Sequence record: NZ_CP096917.1
Origin: a plasmid
Length of the DNA stretch: 20,322 nt
Direction: 5' to 3' (one strand)
The position numbers were made by a program, and so were the translations under genes. The notes under the pieces were generated by a model. The model made no database searches and was not told where the DNA came from. It worked only from the letters and a program-made list of their open reading frames with translations. Each line of letters starts with the position of its first letter. The stretch's first letter is position 1. Of the stretch, positions 4,318 through 15,112 are shown piece by piece.

Positions 4318-4590
4318 CTAGGATTGCTCCGATTGAACCGGCTGGGTGATCGCTTGAGGCGTGCCAAGCAAAGACGCCTTGTGCTGCGAAAGGAAAGACT
4401 TGAGCTTTGCCGGCTCGACACCGGATAGGCCAAGATCGACCAGGACTTTGAAAAGATCGTCCTTGGCCTTCGCCAGTTTCTTTGCCTCTTTTTCTTTTTC
4501 TCTAGCCTCGATGGCACGTAGCTTGGCCTGCATCTTTTGAATTTTGTCCTGGAGCTTCTGCTTCTCAGGGAGCGTCGTTTTTTCAGTCAT
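4318..4590 (-). CDS. Small Lys/Glu-rich coiled-coil protein (90 aa), divergent from oriT/trwA. Possible transfer or stability accessory DNA-binding protein.
   Basis: ATG at 4590 with a strong RBS AGGAG. Sequence MTEKTTLPEKQKLQDKIQKMQAKLRAIEAREKEKEAKKLAKAK... The longer ORF start at 4704 lacks an RBS. Confidence 0.6.
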   Translation of the reverse strand: MTEKTTLPEKQKLQDKIQKMQAKLRAIEAREKEKEAKKLAKAKDDLFKVLVDLGLSGVEPAKLKSFLSQHKASLLGTPQAITQPVQSEQS

Positions 4591-4699: not shown

Positions 4700-4986
4700 G
4701 TCATCTGGAGAGTTTGAGCTATCTTCGACAGGAGGCGACTCTAGCGGGTTGTCCACCTACGGCGGACGACCCGAAAAGGGAGATACCCCCTTCGGGGGCC
4801 CCAAAAATTTTTCCACACCATACGCAACTAGTAGTTGCATGGCTAAGTCATTGGTAAAAAAGAAGATTTTGTGTAGACAACGGGGCTGTGAGATACTTAA
4901 ATTGCTTTCATCATGAAAGCACAATAGCCGTTATAGATCAACAGGTTATTGCGTTTTTTAACGTAGTCACTATCATTGGAAACATT
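4700..4986. other. oriT: Candidate oriT (MOBF-type) upstream of trwA
   Basis: Lower-GC region between divergent genes. Contains inverted repeat GCTTTCAT C ATGAAAGC at 4904-4920, inverted repeat GCAACTA G TAGTTGC at 4824-4838 and hairpin CCCCC TTCG GGGGG at 4786-4798. ATAGCC / TATAG motifs at 4923-4940 are reminiscent of MOBF nic regions. The nic site is not assignable by eye. Confidence 0.5.
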
Positions 4987-5343
4987 ATGAGTCAGTCATC
5001 TATCCCATGCCGCTTCGATTCGAGCACCGCAGCCTTCCTGAAGGCGGAAGCGGCGCGCGAAGGCGTGTCTCAGTCGGAGTACATCCGGCGCATGGTAAGT
5101 AAGGGACTTTTGGTGCAGTCGCTAGAGGATGCAGTCTCGGAAATTCGCTCAGTTTCTCGGGCATCTGGGAGCGGCATAACCGAAGAAGGTTTCCGATTTT
5201 TGGCAACGAGTGTTCTTGAAGTCAGAAATCTTTTGCGCATAATTTCAGCAAAGAACTTCCCAACTGCTGTGACCGAAGCAAGGAAAGATGCAGAGGACGA
5301 AGTGAAGCGCCTTCTTGGCGATGGGGGTAGCAATGTCGGTTAG
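4987..5343 (+). CDS. TrwA/TraY-like ribbon-helix-helix relaxosome accessory protein
   Basis: 118 aa from ATG 4987. N-terminal RHH-like stretch (CRFDSSTAAFLKAEAAREGVSQSEYIRRMVSKGL). Immediately precedes the coupling protein and relaxase genes. Confidence 0.6.
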   Translation: MSQSSIPCRFDSSTAAFLKAEAAREGVSQSEYIRRMVSKGLLVQSLEDAVSEIRSVSRASGSGITEEGFRFLATSVLEVRNLLRIISAKNFPTAVTEARKDAEDEVKRLLGDGGSNVG

Positions 5344-7093
5344 AAGATCGACCAACACGGAGAACCTTGTACGTGGTGCGGATACTCTTCTGCACCAAGG
5401 GACGATGCTGGCAAAGGCCGCGCTTTGGGCTATCAGCTCAGGTGTTCTTGTTGGCTCTGTGGTGGTTTCAATCGGTGCCTCTCTCGTCACCACAGGCACT
5501 GAAAGGACGTTCGCTTACAAGCACATTGTCGCAAAGACAAAGGTATTTTTTTCACAGGAAAAGCACTTGGTTGATCTTGTCATCAACGGCAAAGAAGTGT
5601 CGCTTCCAGCCGACCAGGCTGCGATTGTCACAAGCGGTATTTTTGAGAAAGTGCGCGCGAGAGTTGCACTCGTCGGATTGTTCGGATTGATGGTTGGTGG
5701 TGCGACCTCTGGAGCCCTCGTTTTGTACTGGAGGCGGCGAGGAAGTAAGCAGGCCGAAGATGAATTTATCCGGGGCACTCGTCTCGTCGAAGGGCAACAG
5801 TTGGCGGGATTGATTCAGGCGGATAACAAAGAGAGCAAGATCACTATTGCGGGAGTGCCAACGCTTGCAGGTGGGGAGATGCTTCATACGATGATTTCGG
5901 GGGCAGTCGGAACCGGTAAATCCGTTTCGATTCTCGAAATTCTGGATAGCGTCAGGGCGCAAGGAAAGCGGGCGATTGTTTACGATCCGACAGGGGAGTT
6001 CACAGAGTATTACTACCGCGAAGGGCGGGATGTGATACTTAATCCGCTAGACGCAAGAAGCCCAAACTGGAACTTGTGGAGAGAGATAAGGAGCGACTTC
6101 GATTACCGTAGTTTTGCGACATCTTTGGTACAGGTAAAAAGCCAGACAGACCCATTTTTTGAACAGTCTGCACGGATCATCGCGGAAGAGCTTTTCAGAA
6201 AACTGGCTCAGATTGGCAGAGCGACGAACCAAGCTGTTTATGATGCAGCGGCCAAGCTGACATTACAGGAGCTTTTCGAGCTTTTGAAGGGAACCAGTGG
6301 GGCAAACTTGATTGATCCGGCTGGCGAGAGAACGGCGCTTTCTGTGCGCTCTGCTTTTCTGAATGCCATGAATGCTTTTCGTTATCTCCACGACGACGGC
6401 GAGGCGTTCTCAATCCGAGAATGGGTAGAAAACGACTCGGCTGATTCATGGCTCTTTATCCCATCTCGCGCTGATTACCATGAAGCGGTCAAACCGCTAA
6501 TCACCCTTTGGCTAGAGATCGCTACACGAGGTGTCATGAATCTGCCGCCGATTCGGGAGTCTCGGTTCTGGCTGGTGGTGGACGAGCTTCCCACCTTGCA
6601 AAAGATCGAGGCGCTGCAAACGCTCGTGACGGTAACCCGCAAGTATGGGATGTCCGGTGTATTCGGGATTCAGTCGGTTTCTCAGATGCGCGAGCTGTAC
6701 GGCAAGGACGGTGCGCAGACTGTTATGGGGATGTGCCAGACCTGGGTTGTGCTCCGTGTGGCGGATTCTGAAACAGCCAAGTACCTCTCCGAGACGCTTG
6801 GCCAAGCCGACATTCAGGAGAAGGATGAGGGCCTTTCCTTCGGCGCGGAATCCAACCGGGACGGGACAAATCTCGTCTCCAAACGGACAGAGCGCGCGAT
6901 TGTGCTGGCCTCGGAGATTCAGCACTTGCCCGACCTGGAGGGCTATATGCGGGTTCCTGGCCCGTATCCCGTGGCGAAGATCAAGCTCCAGTATCGTAAC
7001 CGGGAGAAGATTGCTGCGCCCTTTGTGCCGCGTCAGCAAGGCATGTTTGCGGCAGCGCCGGCCGAAGCCGTCGATGCCGATCCGTTCGCGTAG
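5321..7093 (+). CDS. Type IV coupling protein (TrwB/TraD family)
   Basis: Two N-terminal transmembrane segments. Walker A (GAVGTGKS). TraD/TrwB-like block LVVDELPTLQKI. The start is ambiguous among TTG 5315, ATG 5321 and ATG 5333. It overlaps the end of the trwA-like gene. Confidence 0.85.
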   Translation: MGVAMSVRRSTNTENLVRGADTLLHQGTMLAKAALWAISSGVLVGSVVVSIGASLVTTGTERTFAYKHIVAKTKVFFSQEKHLVDLVINGKEVSLPADQAAIVTSGIFEKVRARVALVGLFGLMVGGATSGALVLYWRRRGSKQAEDEFIRGTRLVEGQQLAGLIQADNKESKITIAGVPTLAGGEMLHTMISGAVGTGKSVSILEILDSVRAQGKRAIVYDPTGEFTEYYYREGRDVILNPLDARSPNWNLWREIRSDFDYRSFATSLVQVKSQTDPFFEQSARIIAEELFRKLAQIGRATNQAVYDAAAKLTLQELFELLKGTSGANLIDPAGERTALSVRSAFLNAMNAFRYLHDDGEAFSIREWVENDSADSWLFIPSRADYHEAVKPLITLWLEIATRGVMNLPPIRESRFWLVVDELPTLQKIEALQTLVTVTRKYGMSGVFGIQSVSQMRELYGKDGAQTVMGMCQTWVVLRVADSETAKYLSETLGQADIQEKDEGLSFGAESNRDGTNLVSKRTERAIVLASEIQHLPDLEGYMRVPGPYPVAKIKLQYRNREKIAAPFVPRQQGMFAAAPAEAVDADPFA

Positions 7094-7104
7094 GGGAAGA
7101 AACG

Positions 7105-10100
7105 ATGCTCTCCGCGAAGGTGATCGAGAACGCGCAACAGGCTGAACACTACTTCAGCCAGGACAACTACTACACGACCGAAGAAGGATTCGAGCAGTCC
7201 GCGTGGGCCGGTAAGGGCGCAGCGGCGCTGGGGTTGTCGGGTGGCGTTCATCGTGAGCAGTTCATGGAGCTGCTTGAGGGAAAGGTGGATGGCCAGGAGC
7301 TGGGCAAGTGGGTCAGGAACGAAGAGACTGGCCAGAAGGAGCGCGAACACCGCCCAGGAATAGACCTCACCTTTTCGGCCCCGAAAAGTGTTTCCTTGCT
7401 GGCTGAAGTCGCCGGCAACGAGGAAGTGAGCAAAGCCCATGATGTTGCGGTCGAGCGGGCCATTGCATACCTTGAACGTGTGGCCGCTCAGGCGCGGACT
7501 ACTGTTGATGGGGTTACGTCCCGAGAAGATACCGGCAACTTGGTCGTTGCCCAGTTTCGCCACGATACCAGCCGGGAACTTGATCCGCAGACCCATACCC
7601 ATGCGGTTGTTTTCAACCTTACCAAGCGTTCGGATGGTCAATGGCGCTCCCTTTCCAATGAGGAGTTGCTAGGCCACATCAAGGATGCCGGCGCCTACTA
7701 CCGCACCGAGCTGGCGGGGCAACTGTCTGCGCTGGGGTATGAAATCGAGCGCACGCACGCTGATGGGCGGTTCGAGGTAAAGGGCTTTACCAAGGAGCAG
7801 CTTGAGCACTTCAGCCAGCGCAGCGGGCAGATTGAGCATGCTTTGGCCGAGCGTGGGAAGAACCGTCAGACGGCTACTACCGAGGAAAAGCAGATGGCCG
7901 CCCTGGACACTCGCCAGGCGAAAAAAGAGGTGGATCGTGGCCCGCTGCGTGAGGAATGGCTTTCGCGTGCGAAAGATGTAGGGATCGAGTGGGACAAGAT
8001 ACCTCGTGACAAGGGCGTGACTTTCGCGCGCGAAAGTTCGGCAGAACTCTACCTCCGGGCTAAAGAGGCGGTTGATTACGCCACGAAGCACCTTAGCGAG
8101 CGGCAGGCAGCTTTTTCCGCAAAGGATCTGTATCGGCACGCCGTCGAGTTTGGGACTGGACGAACCACCATCCAGGCCATCGACAAGGCAATTCGTGAGT
8201 CCAAGAAGTCGGGCGACCTGATCCCGATCGGAGACAAGCAGGAACGACTGACCACCCGTGACGCTGTGACGGCAGAGCTGCGGATGCTGGATGCGCTCGA
8301 ACGCTCAAAGGGCGCGGTTTCTTCCGTGGTCGGCACCAACCGGCTAGATGCAAAGATCGAGGCGGCACAGAGCCGCTTGATCCGGGATGGCGTCATCGAT
8401 GCCCAGCTTAATGCCGGCCAGTTGGATGCAGCGAAACTGATCCTGGGCACCAATGATCGGTTTGTAGGCGTCCAGGGTTATGCCGGTACTGGCAAAACCA
8501 CAATGCTAAATGTGGTGAAGGCTGTTGCCGAAGAACAGGGATACGTGGTGCGTGGCCTCGCGCAAAGTGCTTCCGCTGCTGCCACGTTGGAGGCTGAAAC
8601 GGGGATCAAAAGCCAAACGGTGGAGAGCTTCCTCCTGGAGCGCCAGAGAGAGCGGGAAAAGGCCGAGAAAGAGGCGGAGCGCACCGCCAAGAGCAGTGAC
8701 AAGGACAAGCCAACCAGCCGGGATGTGATGGGGAATCGCTACCTGGAGATTCCGGGCGGAATGTTCAAGGAGCGGCAATTGTTGGTTGCTCGCGGAACCG
8801 TTACCAATGCGCTGGCCCTGGAAGCCGTGGACAGACTCCGCGAAATGAGGCCCAAAAACGCCTTGGCCAAAGAGGTGCGTGCCCATGCTCTTGCTACAGC
8901 CCGTGGCATGGTGAAGTGGGAGCGGGCAAGCACGACTGACCAAGTTCTTTTCAGAGCGGCCGAGGTGGCCTCCAAGGTGAAATCGCTTTTCCAAGGGGAG
9001 AAGCCACAGGAAGCAGCGAAGCCAAAGGGCGAAATCTGGACTGTTGATGAGGCCAGTTTGTTGGGGCAACGGGACATCAACCGCCTGTTGGCAGAGGCCG
9101 AGCGAGTCGGGGCCAGGGTTCAGTTCACGGGTGATGTTCGCCAGCTATCGGCTGTCAGCGCTGGCAAGCCGTTCGAGGTTATGCAAACGGCAGGTGGCAT
9201 GCAGACGGCCAAGATGACGGAGATTCACCGCCAGAAGAACGACCTACTCAAAGACACCGTTGCCGACATTATCGAGAAGCGCGAGCAGGATGCTTTCAAG
9301 AAGCTGGCCGGGAATACCGTCGAGCTGAAAGACAACGAGAAGTTGATAGCCCGCATCGTGGCGGATGTCCGCCAGGACGTTGGCCGGGAGATTCGGCACG
9401 AACTGTCTGGCGCTGGTGAAAAGTCCCACAAAGACACTTTGGTCATCACAGCCTTGAATGAAGACCGCCGGGCTATCAATAACGGCGTGCGGCAGGCGCT
9501 CAAGGAAGATGGCGTTATCTCTGGCCAGGCCCGTGATACCGAGGTGTTGGTTAATCGAGGCATGACCAAAGCGCAGGCATCCCACGCACAGAACTACCAC
9601 GAAGGCGACGTGGTGCGGTTTGGGCGTGACTATGAACGCCTCGGGGTGAAGGGTGGCGAGTATGCCCGCGTGGTTGGCGTGAGCGACCTTGGCACCGTAA
9701 AGCTGCAAAAAGCGGACGGGCAAACCCTGGACTGGCGACCCGCACAGACCTCAAAAATTGAGGTGTTCCATGCCGAGCGCCGGGAGCTGCAAGCCGGAGA
9801 CAAGATCAGATTCACGCGCAATGACAAGGATCGTGGCTTGAACAACGGCGATGTTGCCTATGTGAAAGCAATCAACGGCGACAAGGCCACGGTGCAGTTA
9901 AAGGGCAAGACCGTTGCGATTGATCTGCGCGAGGTCAAGCACCTGGACTACGCCTACGCATCCACGATCCATTCCAGCCAGGGGAAAACAGTGGACGCGA
10001 CCGCCTTCCACGTCCGGGGGAAGTCCGGCCAGGTCTTTGGCGACCGGGCCTTCTACGTTGGCGCAACCCGCTCTAGGCACGAGCTGCGCATCTACACCGA

Positions 10101-10215
10101 CGACAAAGACGCCGCATTGCGCGCTGTTTCCCGAGATCAGCACAAGGCGAGCGCATTGGAAGAGTTGAAGCAAGGCCAGAGCGCCGGCCGCCAGCGATCC
10201 GGGTATTCACGATAA
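7105..10215 (+). CDS. trwC: MOBF relaxase-helicase (TrwC/TraI family)
   Basis: 1036 aa. N-terminal relaxase motifs (GLDLTFSAPKSVS, RHDTSRELDPQTHTHAVVFN), C-terminal helicase Walker A (GYAGTGKTT) and TIHSSQGKTVD motif. Overall colinear with R388 TrwC. Confidence 0.93.
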   Translation: MLSAKVIENAQQAEHYFSQDNYYTTEEGFEQSAWAGKGAAALGLSGGVHREQFMELLEGKVDGQELGKWVRNEETGQKEREHRPGIDLTFSAPKSVSLLAEVAGNEEVSKAHDVAVERAIAYLERVAAQARTTVDGVTSREDTGNLVVAQFRHDTSRELDPQTHTHAVVFNLTKRSDGQWRSLSNEELLGHIKDAGAYYRTELAGQLSALGYEIERTHADGRFEVKGFTKEQLEHFSQRSGQIEHALAERGKNRQTATTEEKQMAALDTRQAKKEVDRGPLREEWLSRAKDVGIEWDKIPRDKGVTFARESSAELYLRAKEAVDYATKHLSERQAAFSAKDLYRHAVEFGTGRTTIQAIDKAIRESKKSGDLIPIGDKQERLTTRDAVTAELRMLDALERSKGAVSSVVGTNRLDAKIEAAQSRLIRDGVIDAQLNAGQLDAAKLILGTNDRFVGVQGYAGTGKTTMLNVVKAVAEEQGYVVRGLAQSASAAATLEAETGIKSQTVESFLLERQREREKAEKEAERTAKSSDKDKPTSRDVMGNRYLEIPGGMFKERQLLVARGTVTNALALEAVDRLREMRPKNALAKEVRAHALATARGMVKWERASTTDQVLFRAAEVASKVKSLFQGEKPQEAAKPKGEIWTVDEASLLGQRDINRLLAEAERVGARVQFTGDVRQLSAVSAGKPFEVMQTAGGMQTAKMTEIHRQKNDLLKDTVADIIEKREQDAFKKLAGNTVELKDNEKLIARIVADVRQDVGREIRHELSGAGEKSHKDTLVITALNEDRRAINNGVRQALKEDGVISGQARDTEVLVNRGMTKAQASHAQNYHEGDVVRFGRDYERLGVKGGEYARVVGVSDLGTVKLQKADGQTLDWRPAQTSKIEVFHAERRELQAGDKIRFTRNDKDRGLNNGDVAYVKAINGDKATVQLKGKTVAIDLREVKHLDYAYASTIHSSQGKTVDATAFHVRGKSGQVFGDRAFYVGATRSRHELRIYTDDKDAALRAVSRDQHKASALEELKQGQSAGRQRSGYSR
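7960..7975. repeat. Dispersed palindrome copy 3 (CTTTCGCGTGCGAAAG), inside trwC
   Basis: Encodes LSRAK within the relaxase-helicase linker. Confidence 0.8.
8019..8037. repeat. Dispersed palindrome copy 4 (GACTTTCGCGCGCGAAAGT), inside trwC
   Basis: Encodes VTFARES. 60 bp downstream of copy 3. Confidence 0.8.
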
Positions 10216-10224
10216 GGAGGAAGA

Positions 10225-11352
10225 ATGGAAAAACGATTCAGATTGACTTTGTTGGCTGGGGCGATGCTTGCCCTGTCGATGGGGGCTTACGGCCAGAAGA
10301 TGACCGACCAGGTTATCCAGCAGCAGAGGGCCGAGGCCATGAAAACCCCCTTTCAAGTTCGTCAGGAGAAGAACGAGGCCGATTACAAGAAGGCTAGGAG
10401 CTTCCTGGACGCCGGGAATTACACGGCGGCAATCCCCTACCTTCAGGCAGCGGCCGAACGTGACCACCTAGATTCAATACTTGAGCTGGGCATGATCTAT
10501 GAGGATGGGAAAGGGGTTCCCGTCAACATGGCTAAGGCACAGGAGTATTACGTTCGTGTAGCCGAACGGCACCCGGACATCACGCTAAAAATCAAGGCCG
10601 CGCAGCTCTTTTGTGGTGGCGAAGGGCTGTATGCCAATGATGGTGTGATCCGTGACCCTGAGCGCGGCTTGGCGATTCTGGCCAAAGAGTACAGCCGGGA
10701 ATGGAAGGTCGAAATGGACTGGTGGAAGTACGTGTGCTACACGCGGACGGCCAGCCCTGACCCCAAAAAAGCCGGGCAAATGCTCAATGAGGCAGCGAGT
10801 TATCTGACCGGCGGTGATCGGGATAACACCATCAACGACAAGGCGGTGAAGAAGGTCAAAGACGAGATTTTCAATCGGGTCTATGCCTTTCGTTTGTATG
10901 ACCGCGATGGAGCCTTGAAGAAGTACGGCGCGGCTGCCGAGGCCGGCGACAGCACGGCCCAGCGCGCACTGTACGAGGCATATAGCGATGGCCGCGGCGC
11001 ACCGCAGAGCAGGCAGCTTGCCTTTGAGTGGATCATGAAAGCCGCATCGACTGGCGATGGCTTTGCCGAAACCGTTGTCGGTGAAGCCTACCTGAATGGA
11101 TACACCCCCGTTGACCGCGATTACCAAGCGGCGATCCAGTGGCTCACGAAAGGCGCAGAGCATGGCCAGTGGCTTGCAGCCTGGATGTTGAGCGACCTCT
11201 ACAAAAAAGGTCTTGGTGGCAAGCCTGACAGCAGCCGCGCGCAATTTTGGGCGAACCGTTGCAACGAGCTGGGCGGGAAGTGCGGCGGACAGCGCCAGAC
11301 GGTTGCACCTGGTGCGCAAGGGTCGGCCATTAAGAGGGCTTTTCAGCAATGA
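10225..11352 (+). CDS. Exported Sel1-repeat (SLR/TPR-like) protein
   Basis: Signal peptide MEKRFRLTLLAGAMLALSMGAYG. Several Sel1-like repeats (e.g. LGMIYEDGKGVPVNMAKAQEYY, AEAGDSTAQRALYEAYSDGRG, GEAYLNGYTPVDRDYQAAIQWLTKGAEHG). RBS AAGGAGGA. Start is 9 bp after the trwC stop. Confidence 0.8.
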   Translation: MEKRFRLTLLAGAMLALSMGAYGQKMTDQVIQQQRAEAMKTPFQVRQEKNEADYKKARSFLDAGNYTAAIPYLQAAAERDHLDSILELGMIYEDGKGVPVNMAKAQEYYVRVAERHPDITLKIKAAQLFCGGEGLYANDGVIRDPERGLAILAKEYSREWKVEMDWWKYVCYTRTASPDPKKAGQMLNEAASYLTGGDRDNTINDKAVKKVKDEIFNRVYAFRLYDRDGALKKYGAAAEAGDSTAQRALYEAYSDGRGAPQSRQLAFEWIMKAASTGDGFAETVVGEAYLNGYTPVDRDYQAAIQWLTKGAEHGQWLAAWMLSDLYKKGLGGKPDSSRAQFWANRCNELGGKCGGQRQTVAPGAQGSAIKRAFQQ

Positions 11353-12503
11353 GGCGGGCTATCGTTTTTTTAGCCGTGATGGGCATTGCGGCCGGTGCGA
11401 GTGCTGCGAGTGTTGGCACGGAAACGCGGGAAGGCACCGACACGAAGCAGGGACAGACGATTGAGAACAGCCAAAACATCCAGCTCCGCAAGGGCAACAG
11501 CAAGCGGAATGTGACGGGTTCTGATCGCCGGGCCGCTGAGGAACGGGCACGCGAGAAGCGCCAGACCGATGACATTTCGGCCGAGCTGCAAGGAGCCGCG
11601 CTTTTCATCCCCATGCTTCAGGAGATCGAGCAGGGGCAGGTTGATACAGGGAGCAATCCTGTAGCCGAGTTGTTCCAGAGCTGCCGCTTCTTCACCAGCG
11701 CCCAGCCGGTTCCCGTAGCCCTGGGGGCTTCTCCGTCCCCAATGGAGGTGAACTACTTGGCAGGCGGCGATGTGTCGCTGGTTTGGGGCGCTCAAAACTC
11801 GGAAGTCAGCATATCCGCGAACGACAAAATTACTGTTCGCAGTTCTGATCCGGCTGTGCCGCGCGTGCGGGTATCTGGTGCATCTATCTGGCAGCGGTAC
11901 TACTGGCACGAGACAGCCAGTCTTTTCCGAGTAGGGGCAGCGCGTGACATTGCCCGCTGCTATTTCGCCTATGGGCTGACGATAGCCGGGGCCATGAAGA
12001 ATCTTGCCCAGGGGGGCCGTTTCCAGGAAACCAAGCTCAGTGAAAAGGTTGTGTTGGTTCGTGGCGACCTTCAAGAAAGGGCCGCCGGCGCGCTTGTCGC
12101 GGCCATGCGGGCACCGTCGCTACGCAAGGAGATCGAGGCCAACACCCTGCGCGTGACAAGTGCCGATTGCATTCTCCCCACCTTGGCCGGCTTGAACCAA
12201 GGCAGCACGGAGTGGCAATGCGGGAGCCTGAAGGTTGATCCCAGCCGAGTCATGGCCACCCTTGGGGGAATGACAGTGCTTGGCGAAAACCAATTCATGG
12301 GCCAGCGCCTGGCATTTGCACAAGTGACCGGGCAGAGCGTGACGGCACGCTCCAGCAACAGCCGTTCTACCTATGCCTCCCAAGATGCCACCAGCGAGAC
12401 CGGCCAGGATGTTTCGATGGCCAAGCGCAAGAGCACCACGGTTGACCGTTCGACTACGACCGGCGCGTCTGGCAAGGCCGATACCAACGCAACCCCGAAA
12501 TAA
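11349..12503 (+). CDS. Exported hypothetical protein (384 aa) with Ser/Thr-rich C-terminal tail
   Basis: Signal peptide MRRAIVFLAVMGIAAGASAAS. Start overlaps the upstream stop (ATGA). No recognisable family. Confidence 0.65.
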   Translation: MRRAIVFLAVMGIAAGASAASVGTETREGTDTKQGQTIENSQNIQLRKGNSKRNVTGSDRRAAEERAREKRQTDDISAELQGAALFIPMLQEIEQGQVDTGSNPVAELFQSCRFFTSAQPVPVALGASPSPMEVNYLAGGDVSLVWGAQNSEVSISANDKITVRSSDPAVPRVRVSGASIWQRYYWHETASLFRVGAARDIARCYFAYGLTIAGAMKNLAQGGRFQETKLSEKVVLVRGDLQERAAGALVAAMRAPSLRKEIEANTLRVTSADCILPTLAGLNQGSTEWQCGSLKVDPSRVMATLGGMTVLGENQFMGQRLAFAQVTGQSVTARSSNSRSTYASQDATSETGQDVSMAKRKSTTVDRSTTTGASGKADTNATPK

Positions 12504-12512
12504 GGAAATTCA

Positions 12513-12872
12513 ATGAAAGCCCTTACTGGAGCACTCATCGGCACAGGCGCAGGCGCGATTGTGCTACTGGCGTACCTCTCTCTTGGCCAGCAGGCGGAAA
12601 CGAAGAAAGAGATCCAAGTCGACAAAGCCAAGATCGAGCTGGAACAGGCCCGGTTCGATAAGCAGTTTGACGAGAAGTGGGCCGAGTTCGACGGGAAGAA
12701 GCCATCGAAAGAGGCGAAGGAAGCCCATGAGGAACGCATCCGGGAGGCCGGTAAGGACTTGGCCCAGGCGCGGGATGCTCTCGGGGTTGCATCGGCCAAG
12801 AACGCCAGCGACCTGGCCGAGATGAAAGCGGCCATCGATGCGATGGACAAAGAGTCCGCACCGCGCAAGTGA
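12513..12872 (+). CDS. Small membrane-anchored coiled-coil protein (119 aa)
   Basis: N-terminal hydrophobic helix (ALIGTGAGAIVLLAYLSL), then a K/E-rich coiled coil. RBS AAGGAAA. Confidence 0.6.
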   Translation: MKALTGALIGTGAGAIVLLAYLSLGQQAETKKEIQVDKAKIELEQARFDKQFDEKWAEFDGKKPSKEAKEAHEERIREAGKDLAQARDALGVASAKNASDLAEMKAAIDAMDKESAPRK

Positions 12873-12883
12873 AGGGGGGAAAC

Positions 12884-13573
12884 ATGAAACGCACTATCAC
12901 AGCCGCCTTGCTTATCTCATTGGGCCTTGGCGCTCATGCGACGGATGCCCCTTCGGCCGAGCCGATCCCGGCAACGGAGGCCAGCAGCGGCGGCATCAAG
13001 TTCGACCAGGTAGAGAGTCGCGGGGCCATGTCTCTGCCAGCCGGCACCAAGTCTGTGCCCCTGTACGTGGATTTCCAGGGTAGCCCGAAGCTGACGCGCC
13101 AACTCTCCGAGCAACTGGAGGCGATGGGCTGGCAGGTGACGGATGACCGCAATGCCACCCACTCCCTGACGGCGAAGGGCGAACTTCACGTTTGGGGCAA
13201 GGGATACGGCCTTGGCAGTAGTTCCCGTGTCACGGCCACGCTGGCCAGCTTTGTCGAGGAAAACAAAGTGCCCACCAGGCCAAAGCCTGGCGGCCTGTTT
13301 GGTGCCCTTGGCTCCATGCGGGAGAGCTTCAATTCTGCTGTCTCCGGATCGCCGGATGGTTGGTGCCTTTCCGACCAATGCCGCTTTGTCTGGCAGACCG
13401 CTGTTATCACGATGACCTATCGCAGCGCCAATAAAGACCAGCGCCTTGACGTGTCCGTGCGTGCCTCCGGCGACGCCTTGAACCTTGATGCCGTGGTGGC
13501 CGAGGCTGTCCGCAATTCGTTCTCTGCCATCAAGGCAAGTCCCGATCCTGTTGCTTCTACTCAAACCATGTGA
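12884..13573 (+). CDS. Exported hypothetical protein (about 229 aa)
   Basis: Signal peptide MKRTITAALLISLGLGAHA-TD. Alternative start at 12869 overlaps the upstream stop. RBS GGGGGGAAA. Confidence 0.65.
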   Translation: MKRTITAALLISLGLGAHATDAPSAEPIPATEASSGGIKFDQVESRGAMSLPAGTKSVPLYVDFQGSPKLTRQLSEQLEAMGWQVTDDRNATHSLTAKGELHVWGKGYGLGSSSRVTATLASFVEENKVPTRPKPGGLFGALGSMRESFNSAVSGSPDGWCLSDQCRFVWQTAVITMTYRSANKDQRLDVSVRASGDALNLDAVVAEAVRNSFSAIKASPDPVASTQTM

Positions 13574-13587
13574 AAGGAAAACCAGCC

Positions 13588-14130
13588 ATGAAGATCAAGA
13601 ACCTTCTCTCCATCATCGCCGTTGCCGCAATCGCGCAAGGCGCATTTGCGGCCGAGATCGACGCCGTAACCCTCTCCCACGATGGCCGCATTCTGCGCGC
13701 TCAGGGAGCGCCGGCAGCCGTCCAGGTTGCGGCTTTCAGCAGTACGGCCCCGGACTCGGTGCCGGCGACGTGCAAGGTGTTTGACATGGCCGGCTTTCTG
13801 AACCGGGACGATGCCAAGCCTGCGCTGCCTGTGGTCGAGGGGGTTCCCTATGGTTCCCGTCTCGTTTCTGCCTGGCACGAAGCGGCCGGCATTGTCGGCC
13901 GCGCGCCGGACTCCATGTTTTTCTGCATGACCAAGGACGGTGAACGGATGTTCGGAGAGGGTACGAGCTTCAACCCGTCCTATGAGTACCGGAAGGCGGC
14001 CGGCGCAGCGCCGGAGCGCGGCCAGATCGTCAGTGTGATCGGCGGCAGTGTGGTGATCGGTGTTGTGTTCTGGAACCCGGTGACGCCGGTTGCCGAATCC
14101 AAGTACGTCTCCATGAACTTCGGCCGCTGA
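13588..14130 (+). CDS. Exported hypothetical protein (about 180 aa)
   Basis: Signal peptide MKIKNLLSIIAVAAIAQGAFA-AE. Alternative start at 13570 overlaps the upstream stop. RBS AAAGGAAA. Confidence 0.65.
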   Translation: MKIKNLLSIIAVAAIAQGAFAAEIDAVTLSHDGRILRAQGAPAAVQVAAFSSTAPDSVPATCKVFDMAGFLNRDDAKPALPVVEGVPYGSRLVSAWHEAAGIVGRAPDSMFFCMTKDGERMFGEGTSFNPSYEYRKAAGAAPERGQIVSVIGGSVVIGVVFWNPVTPVAESKYVSMNFGR

Positions 14131-14147
14131 CTTTCGCGCGCGAAAGT
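14129..14147. repeat. Dispersed palindrome copy 5 (GACTTTCGCGCGCGAAAGT)
   Basis: Overlaps the stop codon of the last exported-protein gene. Confidence 0.8.
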
Positions 14148-14157
14148 GGAGGCTGGC

Positions 14158-14177
14158 GACTTTCGCATGCGAAAGTC
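14158..14177. repeat. Dispersed palindrome copy 6 (GACTTTCGCATGCGAAAGTC, AT centre variant)
   Basis: 29 bp from copy 5. Upstream of the eamA-like gene. Confidence 0.8.
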
Positions 14178-14212: not shown

Positions 14213-15112
14213 ATGAGTTCAGGCTTTGCTCTCGGTAACAACCGGCCTCAGTGGGCCGACTGGCATTTCGCCCTGCCGCTTCTTTTTGTGGTGCTCTACG
14301 GCTCTGGTTTCGTTGGGGCCAAGCTGGGGCTTCCCGATGCCGGCCCCTTTACCTTCCTCGCGCTGCGCTTTGCGCTGGCCTCGATCATCATGGTTGTGAT
14401 CGCCCTGGCCATCAAAGCACCGTGGCCAACCACCCCGAAAGAGTGGCTGCACATTGCCGGTGCCGGGTTCTTCGGTGTGGGGGTTTTTTCGGCTGCGGCT
14501 TTCTCCAGTATCGCGCTGGGTGTGCCGCCCGCCGTTTCCGCCCTGATCGTGGCGCTTAACCCCATCGTGGTGGCTTTGGCAGCGGGGCCGCTCCTGGGCG
14601 AGCGCACCAACTACCGCCAGCTCCTGGGGTTGCTGCTGGGCTTCTGCGGCGTTTATCTGGTCTTGCGGGATCGGCTTGGGGTCGATGCGGGCTATACCAC
14701 GGCGGTACTGTTGTCCGTGCTGGCCCTGCTGGGCCTGGCTGTCGGCAACCTGTACCAGAAAAAGCACTGCACCAGCATGAACCTTTTTACCGGGGGAGCC
14801 TTGCAGTGCTGCGTGTGCGCCCTGGCCATGAGTGCGGGCATGATGATCTTTGACGAAGGCCCGGTTCACTGGACGGCTGAATTCATGGTGGCTTGGTTCT
14901 GGATGGCCATTGCTGTTTCGATTGGGGCTGTCAGCATCCTCTACATCATGATCCGCCGCGCCGAGGTCAGCCGGGTGGCCAGTGTGTTTTTCCTGATGCC
15001 GGTTAGCGCCGCTGTGATTGCCTATGCACTCTTTGGCCAAGCACTGACGGCCAGCGCGTTCCTGGGCATGGGCGTTACGGTTGCCGGCGTGATGCTGGCC
15101 CAGCGTAGGTAA
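14213..15112 (+). CDS. EamA/DMT-superfamily transporter (10 TMS-type)
   Basis: About 300 aa with repeated hydrophobic helices typical of EamA (e.g. GVYLVLRDRLG, FWMAIAVSIGAVSILYIMIRR). ATG at 14213 with RBS AAGGA. The ORF tracker's TTG start at 14207 is rejected. Confidence 0.8.
   Translation: MSSGFALGNNRPQWADWHFALPLLFVVLYGSGFVGAKLGLPDAGPFTFLALRFALASIIMVVIALAIKAPWPTTPKEWLHIAGAGFFGVGVFSAAAFSSIALGVPPAVSALIVALNPIVVALAAGPLLGERTNYRQLLGLLLGFCGVYLVLRDRLGVDAGYTTAVLLSVLALLGLAVGNLYQKKHCTSMNLFTGGALQCCVCALAMSAGMMIFDEGPVHWTAEFMVAWFWMAIAVSIGAVSILYIMIRRAEVSRVASVFFLMPVSAAVIAYALFGQALTASAFLGMGVTVAGVMLAQRR

Follow-up and report, generated by a model that had tools for sequence, protein, structure and literature searches.

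Predicted envelope proteins encoded beside the orphan coupling protein of small mobilisable plasmids

Mobilisable plasmids outnumber conjugative ones, and the use of foreign channels by those that carry their own type IV coupling protein (T4CP) is poorly understood. Here we analyse the plasmid of sequence record NZ_CP096917.1, whose whole stretch of 20,322 nucleotides is called the window below, and in which the transfer genes trwA, trwB and trwC are followed directly by five genes, O1 to O5, for predicted exported proteins. Among described plasmids, those of the CloDF13 type (MOBC1) are comparable in being small, in encoding a relaxase (MobC) together with their own T4CP (MobB), in having no mating-pair-formation (Mpf) genes, and in depending on a helper (PMC7434980). 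The window plasmid differs from them in having a MOBF relaxase of the TrwC type, and no exported accessory proteins have been described for CloDF13. What is new here, as judged from sequence, is a mobilisation module that is extended by a conserved and uncharacterised set of predicted envelope genes.

There is precedent for T4CPs that require an adjacent small membrane partner, an example being TraG-TraJ of IncH plasmids (PMC7434980). TraJ of the IncHI plasmid R27, like TraJ/TraI of pIP501, resembles O3 of the present cluster in that O3 is also a small predicted inner-membrane protein encoded near a T4CP gene. Beyond this adjacency the likeness ends: TraJ has about 200 aa and up to five transmembrane (TM) helices and comes from complete conjugative systems, whereas O3 has 119 aa, a single TM segment, a predicted periplasmic coiled coil and O2 as its partner, is found on plasmids without Mpf genes, and shows no sequence similarity to TraJ, so that neither its size nor its TM count is that of a TraJ-type protein. 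The genes on which the analysis turns are as follows.

4987..5343, plus strand: trwA-like gene, relaxosome accessory protein of 118 aa, ribbon-helix-helix (RHH)/NikA-like
5405..7093, plus strand: trwB, T4CP (TrwB_AAD_bind, E 1e-128)
7105..10215, plus strand: trwC, MOBF relaxase-helicase of 1036 aa (TrwC, E 2e-86, and AAA_30)
10225..11352, plus strand: O1, predicted exported Sel1-repeat protein of 375 aa (Sel1, E 3e-18)
11349..12503, plus strand: O2, predicted exported core protein of 384 aa with signal peptide, Cys core and Ser/Thr-rich tail
12513..12872, plus strand: O3, predicted bitopic inner-membrane protein of 119 aa with periplasmic coiled coil
12884..13573, plus strand: O4, predicted exported protein of 229 aa, a lineage-specific insertion
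13588..14130, plus strand: O5, predicted exported protein of 180 aa with two conserved Cys, belonging to the Sel1-type clade

The 20.3-kb window (positions 1-20322) is a complete circular, TrfA-type replicon, because its last 1.3 kb directly precedes its first 1.3 kb in contig L001, where the run ParA-78aa-TrfA crosses the junction between window end and start. Within this circle only trwB and trwC exceed 400 aa, the genes besides trw and the cluster have replication, partition, toxin-antitoxin, resolvase or EamA assignments, and neither a VirB4-type ATPase nor any other Mpf gene was found by ORF (open reading frame) size or Pfam. The complete relatives of 12.1 kb and 17 kb described below likewise have no ORF of VirB4 size and no Mpf match in Pfam. 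A self-transmissible plasmid would carry a VirB4/TraC-family ATPase and an Mpf set on the replicon; since the complete circle has no type IV secretion genes, its gene content marks the window plasmid as mobilisable with an orphan T4CP, and not conjugative.

Its DNA-transfer and replication (Dtr) genes form a MOBF module, with a TrwC relaxase joined to a helicase, a T4CP and a small RHH protein in one operon. Gene calls give the trwA-like protein 118 aa on every related contig, and it is 58-63% identical to its relatives, its weak NikA-like Pfam match being obtained on a longer ORF (4888-5343), and the trwB product has two TM segments at its N terminus and a Walker A motif at residue 166. Two starts compete for trwB: a TTG at 5315, which overlaps trwA, and the ATG at 5405, which is preferred in most gene calls; some relatives are called as a longer form of 586-591 aa. 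A nic sequence of the R388 type was not found in the window. The best relaxase relatives of trwC in PLSDB, at 46% identity, are on conjugative MPF_F plasmids of about 70 kb from Comamonadaceae and Burkholderiales, of which pALIDE201 is an example, and the nearest T4CPs are likewise on MPF_F conjugative plasmids. A distinctive periplasmic loop in the T4CPs linked to the module was looked for and none was found.

The five cluster genes are consecutive, tightly packed ORFs on the plus strand (10225-14130). O1 is preceded by GGAGGA and starts 9 nt after the trwC stop at 10215, a distance given in the original prediction, a reading made from the letters of the window, whose picture of close packing and strong ribosome-binding sites (RBSs) also holds. 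Of the two ATGA overlaps that it listed, one is real, between O1 and O2. The remaining gaps, with ATG starts, measure 9, 11 and 14 nt, and the other overlaps would be GTGA and arise only if upstream GTG starts were used (O4 at 12869, giving 234 aa; O5 at 13570, giving 186 aa). The ATG starts adopted here agree with independent gene calling on over 20 metagenome contigs. The space between trwC and the cluster is too short to hold a terminator or promoter, and from trwC through to the O5 stop neither a sigma-70-like promoter nor any convincing terminator was seen, which is consistent with the inferred co-transcription of the cluster with trwABC. No Rfam family matched.

That these five genes, whose products are predicted to be exported, are genuine follows from a coding-type GC pattern, from dN/dS (nonsynonymous to synonymous substitution) ratios far below 1 and from conserved synteny. 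Codon positions in the cluster rank GC3>GC1>GC2, as in trwC; comparison with relatives gives dN/dS values of 0.03-0.30 for O1, O2, O3 and O5 and of 0.14 for O4; the identical cluster is present on at least 23 independent metagenome contigs, and diverged copies with 40-70% amino-acid identity are syntenic on other plasmids. A Sec signal or signal anchor is predicted in all five products, in agreement with the earlier claim that each has a signal peptide or membrane anchor. The possibility that the ORFs are spurious or decaying, which could be raised because four of the five have no annotated homologue, is negligible in view of these ratios, the coding-type GC pattern, the RBSs and signal peptides, and synteny kept at 25-70% amino-acid identity; homologues, synteny and codon periodicity, whose lack the original prediction had named as the sign of spurious frames, are all present.

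Database searches leave the products largely without relatives of known function. O2 to O5 have no match in Pfam, NCBIfam, PHROGs or PADLOC, and thus none to the type IV secretion subunits (VirB1-11, F-type Tra/Trb, Dot/Icm) modelled in Pfam and NCBIfam; apart from the PADLOC match given next, O1 alone was recognised, by Sel1/TPR models. Searches of PDB sequences returned nothing for O2 (by profile), O4 or O5, and O4 and O5 match no family. The only match to the PADLOC defence models is that of the O1 repeat region to PtuA (E 1e-6 over 57 aa). Sub-threshold matches to MerG, AlgK, ExoR, MotX, PtuA, DUF4407, TraP_IncI1 and DivIC, all scoring far under the cutoffs, were put down to similarity of repeats or coiled coils and rejected. 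Profile hidden Markov models (HMMs) of O2, O3 and O5, and phmmer searches with the window proteins including O1 and O4, gave only noise against the annotated proteins of pALIDE201, a comparison that covered about 64 kb including the whole tra region; an origin of the module from the F-type Mpf proteins of that plasmid was rejected for want of similarity. The earlier remark that none of the products resembles known Mpf or exclusion proteins thus agrees with Pfam, NCBIfam, PHROGs, PADLOC and PDB sequences alike.

The individual proteins fit their first descriptions as a Sel1 protein, a 384-aa protein with a Ser/Thr-rich tail and a 119-aa anchored coiled-coil protein. O1, O2, O4 and O5 have signal peptides with an n-region, an h-region and an AxA-type site. 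O1 is a member of the Sel1 family (65.9 bits against a Pfam cutoff of 30.7, in 4 stretches), as are its homologues in contigs L012, L014 and L016, and it is 40-46% identical to its counterparts in the 17-kb relatives. With at least four Sel1 repeats behind a signal peptide it recalls the Sel1 and tetratricopeptide-repeat scaffolds AlgK, MotX, ExoR and the PilF-type pilotins; its AlgK, MotX and ExoR scores, however, lie far under the equivalog cutoffs, and it is not a lipoprotein.

O2 belongs to a family of proteins of about 360-410 aa, none of them annotated. After the signal peptide the alignment shows a conserved polar segment of about 50-60 aa; in 35 family sequences C274, C291 and G318 are invariant, and C112 and C204 are kept in most. 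Residues 331-384 of the window protein are 39% Ser and Thr, and the C-terminal tail ends in a conserved motif like [ST]-A-[ST]-P-[KR]. Both tails are conserved and predicted to be disordered, and AlphaFold2 (AF2) extends both as long strands; the confidently modelled core found no structural match in the PDB. The model is that of a predicted soluble periplasmic protein that is likely to be disulfide-bonded.

O3 consists of one N-terminal hydrophobic segment (residues 1-26) followed by a charged helical region, and keeps across lineages a motif LYFxLxGQQE...FDxxF (with the variants ...LYF/LAYLSLxGQQE... and FDxxF/W). Outside this motif it is a generic coiled coil, which accounts for its sub-threshold DUF4407 and DivIC matches; all annotations in its 64 clusters read 'hypothetical'. 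O4 is confined to the TrfA-type sub-lineage (window, L022/23, L031-34) and absent from L012, L014 and L016. O5 has homologues with 43-46% identity at the same position in those three contigs; its AF2 model (pLDDT, the predicted local distance difference test, 43) was not used.

What the cluster may do is indicated by its distribution. A word index returned 12 relatives of O2 and an exhaustive HMMER scan 55 representatives, and the O2-O3 pair lies beside a T4CP gene in at least five divergent lineages of plasmids of 12-20 kb. Besides the TrfA lineage of the window (with L001-L010, L017, L022/23 and L031-34), there are 17-kb circles with RepA_C or RPA replication genes, and a contig from an Azonexus metagenome-assembled genome (MAG); in all of these the order is trwA-trwB-trwC-Sel1-O2-O3-O5-like, without O4, so that the cluster does neighbour trwC in related plasmids, one of the checks proposed at the outset. 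A complete circle of 12.1 kb carries replication, partition and toxin-antitoxin genes, trwABC, a 53-aa gene, a gene for an exported 194-aa protein unrelated to O1, and O2-like and O3-like genes (29% and 52% identity). Since the module persists on this circle without other content, it is part of the plasmid core gene set and not cargo.

Two further contigs show other arrangements: L029 has trwB-trwC, a trypsin-like protease, a 319-aa lipoprotein, O2-like, O3-like, a 176-aa lipoprotein and a nuclease, and in L026 a 341-aa lipoprotein, O2-like and O3-like lie just 5' of an RHH gene and a TrwB-like T4CP. A marine, gammaproteobacterial branch of 12-15 kb (Spongiibacter plasmid NZ_CP011478, L011; L024/25; L036-L040) has a very divergent T4CP with only faint Pfam matches, a 260-aa MOBC-type gene, O3-like, an optional 290-aa lipoprotein and O2-like. 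One O2/O3-bearing branch is typed MOBC by MOB-suite, a further likeness to CloDF13. The T4CPs that accompany the pair are down to about 24-40% identical and belong with different relaxase families. Wherever enough DNA is available a T4CP gene lies within a few kb of the pair, and there is no ORF of VirB4 size. In the lineages examined O3 adjoins the O2 homologue, with one exception: in L027, the most divergent member, the O2 homologue is followed by a 111-aa gene without a BLAST match to O3.

The original prediction had treated the five genes as one uniform operon, and this does not hold: O2 and O3 are, from these comparisons, the deep evolutionary core of the module, O1 is exchanged, O5 is specific to a clade, and O4 is missing in the 17-kb relatives. 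Just upstream of O2 stands a gene for a fast-changing exported protein, often translationally coupled to O2, which is the Sel1 protein here and a predicted outer-membrane lipoprotein elsewhere. The lipoboxes of the partners are canonical and lack Asp at +2 in L026 and L029, and that of L024 is non-canonical; when partners from the other lineages were compared with Pfam, the trypsin-like protease of L029 was the sole match. Often the set includes one more small exported protein, which here is O5.

The pair appears restricted to small replicons, of which the module takes up 15-20%. In a scan of a genome collection and among the contigs of the clusters it was not found on chromosomes or large replicons; with O2 the scan retrieved a single MAG contig, near-identical to the window, and the family is absent from IMG/VR viral contigs. 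The longest contig of any O2/O3 cluster measures 36.9 kb, and the largest locus examined is the 31-kb contig L031, of the same O3 cluster, which has the same backbone with chromate and TauE cargo. By tblastn with O2 and a second homologue, from the MOBC branch, 1 of 72,556 PLSDB plasmids was found, Spongiibacter NZ_CP011478, typed as mobilisable and the sole cultured member of the marine branch in PLSDB; O3, O4 and O5 had no match there, and megablast of the cluster against PLSDB retrieved no related plasmid. The sources are marine, groundwater and other metagenomes, and the attributed hosts include Beta- and Gammaproteobacteria.

Between close relatives the module is uneven. Compared with L022/L023, the window shows 91-98% nucleotide identity where O1 ends, in the opening ~100 codons of O2, in the tail of O2 and across O4-O5, against only 30-60% in the body of O1 (10300-11100) and the core of O2 (11650-12250). 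In L031 and L034, O2 is 98-99% identical and O3 86%, with the differences concentrated in the TM segment, and trwB and trwC are swapped independently (91.5% against 99.4% in L031; 99.5% against 82.7% in L034). From their alignments, the O1, O2 and O3 variants are recombined allelic cassettes, a mosaic pattern typical of specificity determinants which does not indicate the partner recognised.

A link to the large F-type plasmids is provided by a palindrome. The cluster ends, as first noted, at a pair of copies after the O5 stop (14131 and 14160), and a pair also follows the O5 homologue in L012 and L016. The palindrome CTTTCGCNNGCGAAAG has 10 perfect copies in the window against 0 expected, mostly paired and at module boundaries, and in pALIDE201 (L035, L042; ~64 kb examined) at least 13 exact copies, 15 with one mismatch. 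It is a probable operator common to the small plasmids and the F-type plasmids, and looks like a site for a global regulator or a ParB/KorB-like protein. This common palindrome, taken with the nearest Dtr relatives, points to plasmids of the pALIDE201 type as relatives of the window plasmid and as candidate helpers or ancestors. The elements are:

14131..14175, no strand: pair of 16-bp palindromes, CTTTCGCG(C/A)(G/T)GCGAAAG, closing the cluster
4221, 4274, 7960, 8021, 14131, 14160, 15372, 15429, 16098 and 19345: palindrome copies, 16 bp each

One pair lies inside trwC (7960-7975 and 8021-8036, codons ~285 and ~305), at the boundary of the relaxase and helicase domains, and recurs at matching codons in the trwC of L012 (5005, 5066), which is only 70% identical; it may act as a roadblock or in regulation from within the gene.

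We favour, tentatively and with a probability of roughly 0.4, the reading that the module encodes an envelope complex, built from plasmid core genes, that would act with the T4CP in mobilisation and adapt it to a helper's channel. In this model proteins of the O1, O2 and O3 types would assemble as an envelope complex alongside the plasmid's orphan coupling protein. O3 would sit beside the T4CP in the inner membrane, O2 and its partner would reach through the periplasm, and the Sel1 or lipoprotein partner would extend towards the outer membrane, so that the T4CP and relaxosome would be connected to the periplasmic and outer-membrane parts of the helper channel, possibly that of a pALIDE201-like plasmid of the F type. 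Which partner is recognised would be determined by the hypervariable stretches of O1, O2 and O3. We prefer this reading to exclusion, adhesion or cargo because the pair is linked to T4CP genes and is absent from conjugative plasmids. It retains the transfer-linked envelope role first proposed for the cluster, to which the O2-O3/T4CP linkage points, and gives up the framing around the plasmid's own mating apparatus, to be stabilised or protected by exclusion, which is untenable for a plasmid without Mpf genes. By analogy only, a lipoprotein, a periplasmic Cys protein and an inner-membrane-anchored protein that would span the periplasm recall VirB7-VirB9-VirB10, whose anchored member communicates with the T4CP; the products share no sequence similarity, and the modelled O2 core no fold, with solved type IV secretion subunits, O3 has no VirB10 beta-barrel domain, and VirB4, VirB6 and VirB8 are absent here.

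Several points weigh against it. The role rests on gene neighbourhood, with no homology to proteins of known function, and the helper plasmid is hypothetical. To our knowledge no periplasmic adaptor is required for T4CP docking, and we know of no such need in plasmids of the CloDF13 type, which bring their own T4CP. In its periplasmic loop the T4CP here does not differ from that of conjugative pALIDE201, and O3 and trwB alleles do not co-vary in L031 and L034. Two short contigs with the O2 family show no T4CP, and the contexts described cover about 10 of the 55 O2-family representatives. Hypervariability fits exclusion or adhesion equally well. Docking of a T4CP to the type IV secretion system (T4SS) is furthermore achieved mainly through the T4CP transmembrane domain with VirB10/VirB4 (PMC7434980).

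Exclusion, in which O3 and/or O2/O1 would block entry of the same or a related plasmid and the alleles would define exclusion groups, is an unlikely explanation that nonetheless shares much with the data: the predicted envelope location, the place of the module in the plasmid core gene set, and O1, O2 and O3 that are allelic and mosaic between near-identical backbones, as exclusion determinants are. In the F plasmid traS/traT lie directly upstream of the T4CP gene traD, and mobilisable ColE1 encodes an exclusion function, MbeD; like the present genes these encode envelope proteins beside a T4CP or relaxase, with allelic specificity groups. There is, however, no homology to them, no Pfam or NCBIfam match at E<=1 having been found to TraS, TraT, TrbK, Eex or MbeD, and at 3-5 proteins and ~1,280 aa in total the module far exceeds any known exclusion system. 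Known exclusion proteins recognise a component of the donor Mpf (TraG/VirB6), a cognate that this plasmid does not encode, and exclusion would leave the strict tie to small T4CP-bearing plasmids unexplained. We consider it less probable still that the module serves mating-pair stabilisation, adhesion or modulation of the recipient envelope, promoting contact between donor and recipient whichever helper pilus is at hand, with variable O1/O2 binding variable structures of the recipient surface by a TraN-like logic. O2 does share with F-type TraN that it is exported, contains Cys and has a hypervariable middle between conserved ends, Sel1 proteins are protein-protein interaction scaffolds, and the Dtr relatives reside on MPF_F plasmids, which use TraN/TraG stabilisation. 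TraN, in contrast, resides in the outer membrane, measures ~400-600 aa and has far more conserved Cys, against four Cys in O2; its Pfam family matches 0 of 35 O2-family members, the O2 HMM scores 0.3 bits against TraN of pALIDE201, and the HMMs of the O families find nothing in TraN or TraG of that plasmid. No product of the cluster has a C-terminal aromatic outer-membrane-protein signal, an outer-membrane beta-barrel or an autotransporter feature, and there is no sign of surface exposure.

That the genes are cargo unrelated to transfer, an envelope, host-interaction or stress module riding in the trw operon, is about as improbable as adhesion. Sel1 proteins are often involved in host interaction or exopolysaccharide regulation, a gene for an EamA-family transporter directly follows the cluster, and larger variants carry chromate genes; against this, O2-O3 persists on minimal 12-kb plasmids without other cargo, stays beside T4CPs that are only ~24-40% identical and go with different relaxase families, and is missing from chromosomes and large replicons. 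The boldest alternative is that T4CP as pump, O3, O2 and the Sel1 or lipoprotein partner constitute an autonomous route across the envelope, free of VirB4 and pilus, by which the plasmids would be self-transmissible. Components are predicted in each envelope layer, these tiny plasmids conserve exactly T4CP, relaxase and module, and the conserved tails of O2, disordered in prediction, are as expected of segments that fold on oligomerisation. Against this, all diderm conjugation systems known to us require VirB4 and ~10 Mpf proteins. Neither a pilin nor a peptidoglycan hydrolase nor a channel protein embedded in the membrane is encoded, and the O2 tails are hydrophilic, so that no membrane-spanning barrel is predicted. 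We regard such a conduit as very improbable.

The rest of the replicon holds upkeep genes and little cargo:

14213-15112: EamA-family transporter, after the cluster
4318-4590, minus strand: lysine-rich ORF of 90 aa, called on all related contigs
Plasmid upkeep: TrfA, KfrA, HigBA, ParA with a small partner, and two serine resolvases

There are at least three toxin-antitoxin pairs (HigBA, MqsA-type and PemK/MazE). The EamA transporter is seen 3' of the cluster only within the TrfA lineage and for this reason is taken as cargo. In the 31-kb variant L031, which has the same backbone, chromate-transporter and TauE genes are inserted upstream of HigB (EamA at L031 1-900). The conserved 90-aa ORF separates HigA from trwA and falls in the presumed region of the origin of transfer (oriT) and promoter; in the 12-kb plasmid L019 its position is taken by a similar 84-aa gene.

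Taken on its gene content, the module is a two-protein core, O2 and O3, with exchangeable partners, attached to orphan T4CPs across MOBF and MOBC plasmids, and O2 has a confidently predicted fold without a match in the PDB. The 12.1-kb relative (L018/L019) offers a minimal and genetically tractable test system. If the proteins act in exclusion or adhesion, they would be the first such system tied to plasmids without Mpf genes, and if the conduit were real it would be a previously undescribed, categorically new conjugation apparatus in diderm bacteria. If instead the module is needed for mobilisation, it would supply a missing component of the 'hitcher' lifestyle of these plasmids and a determinant of specificity in their choice of helper.

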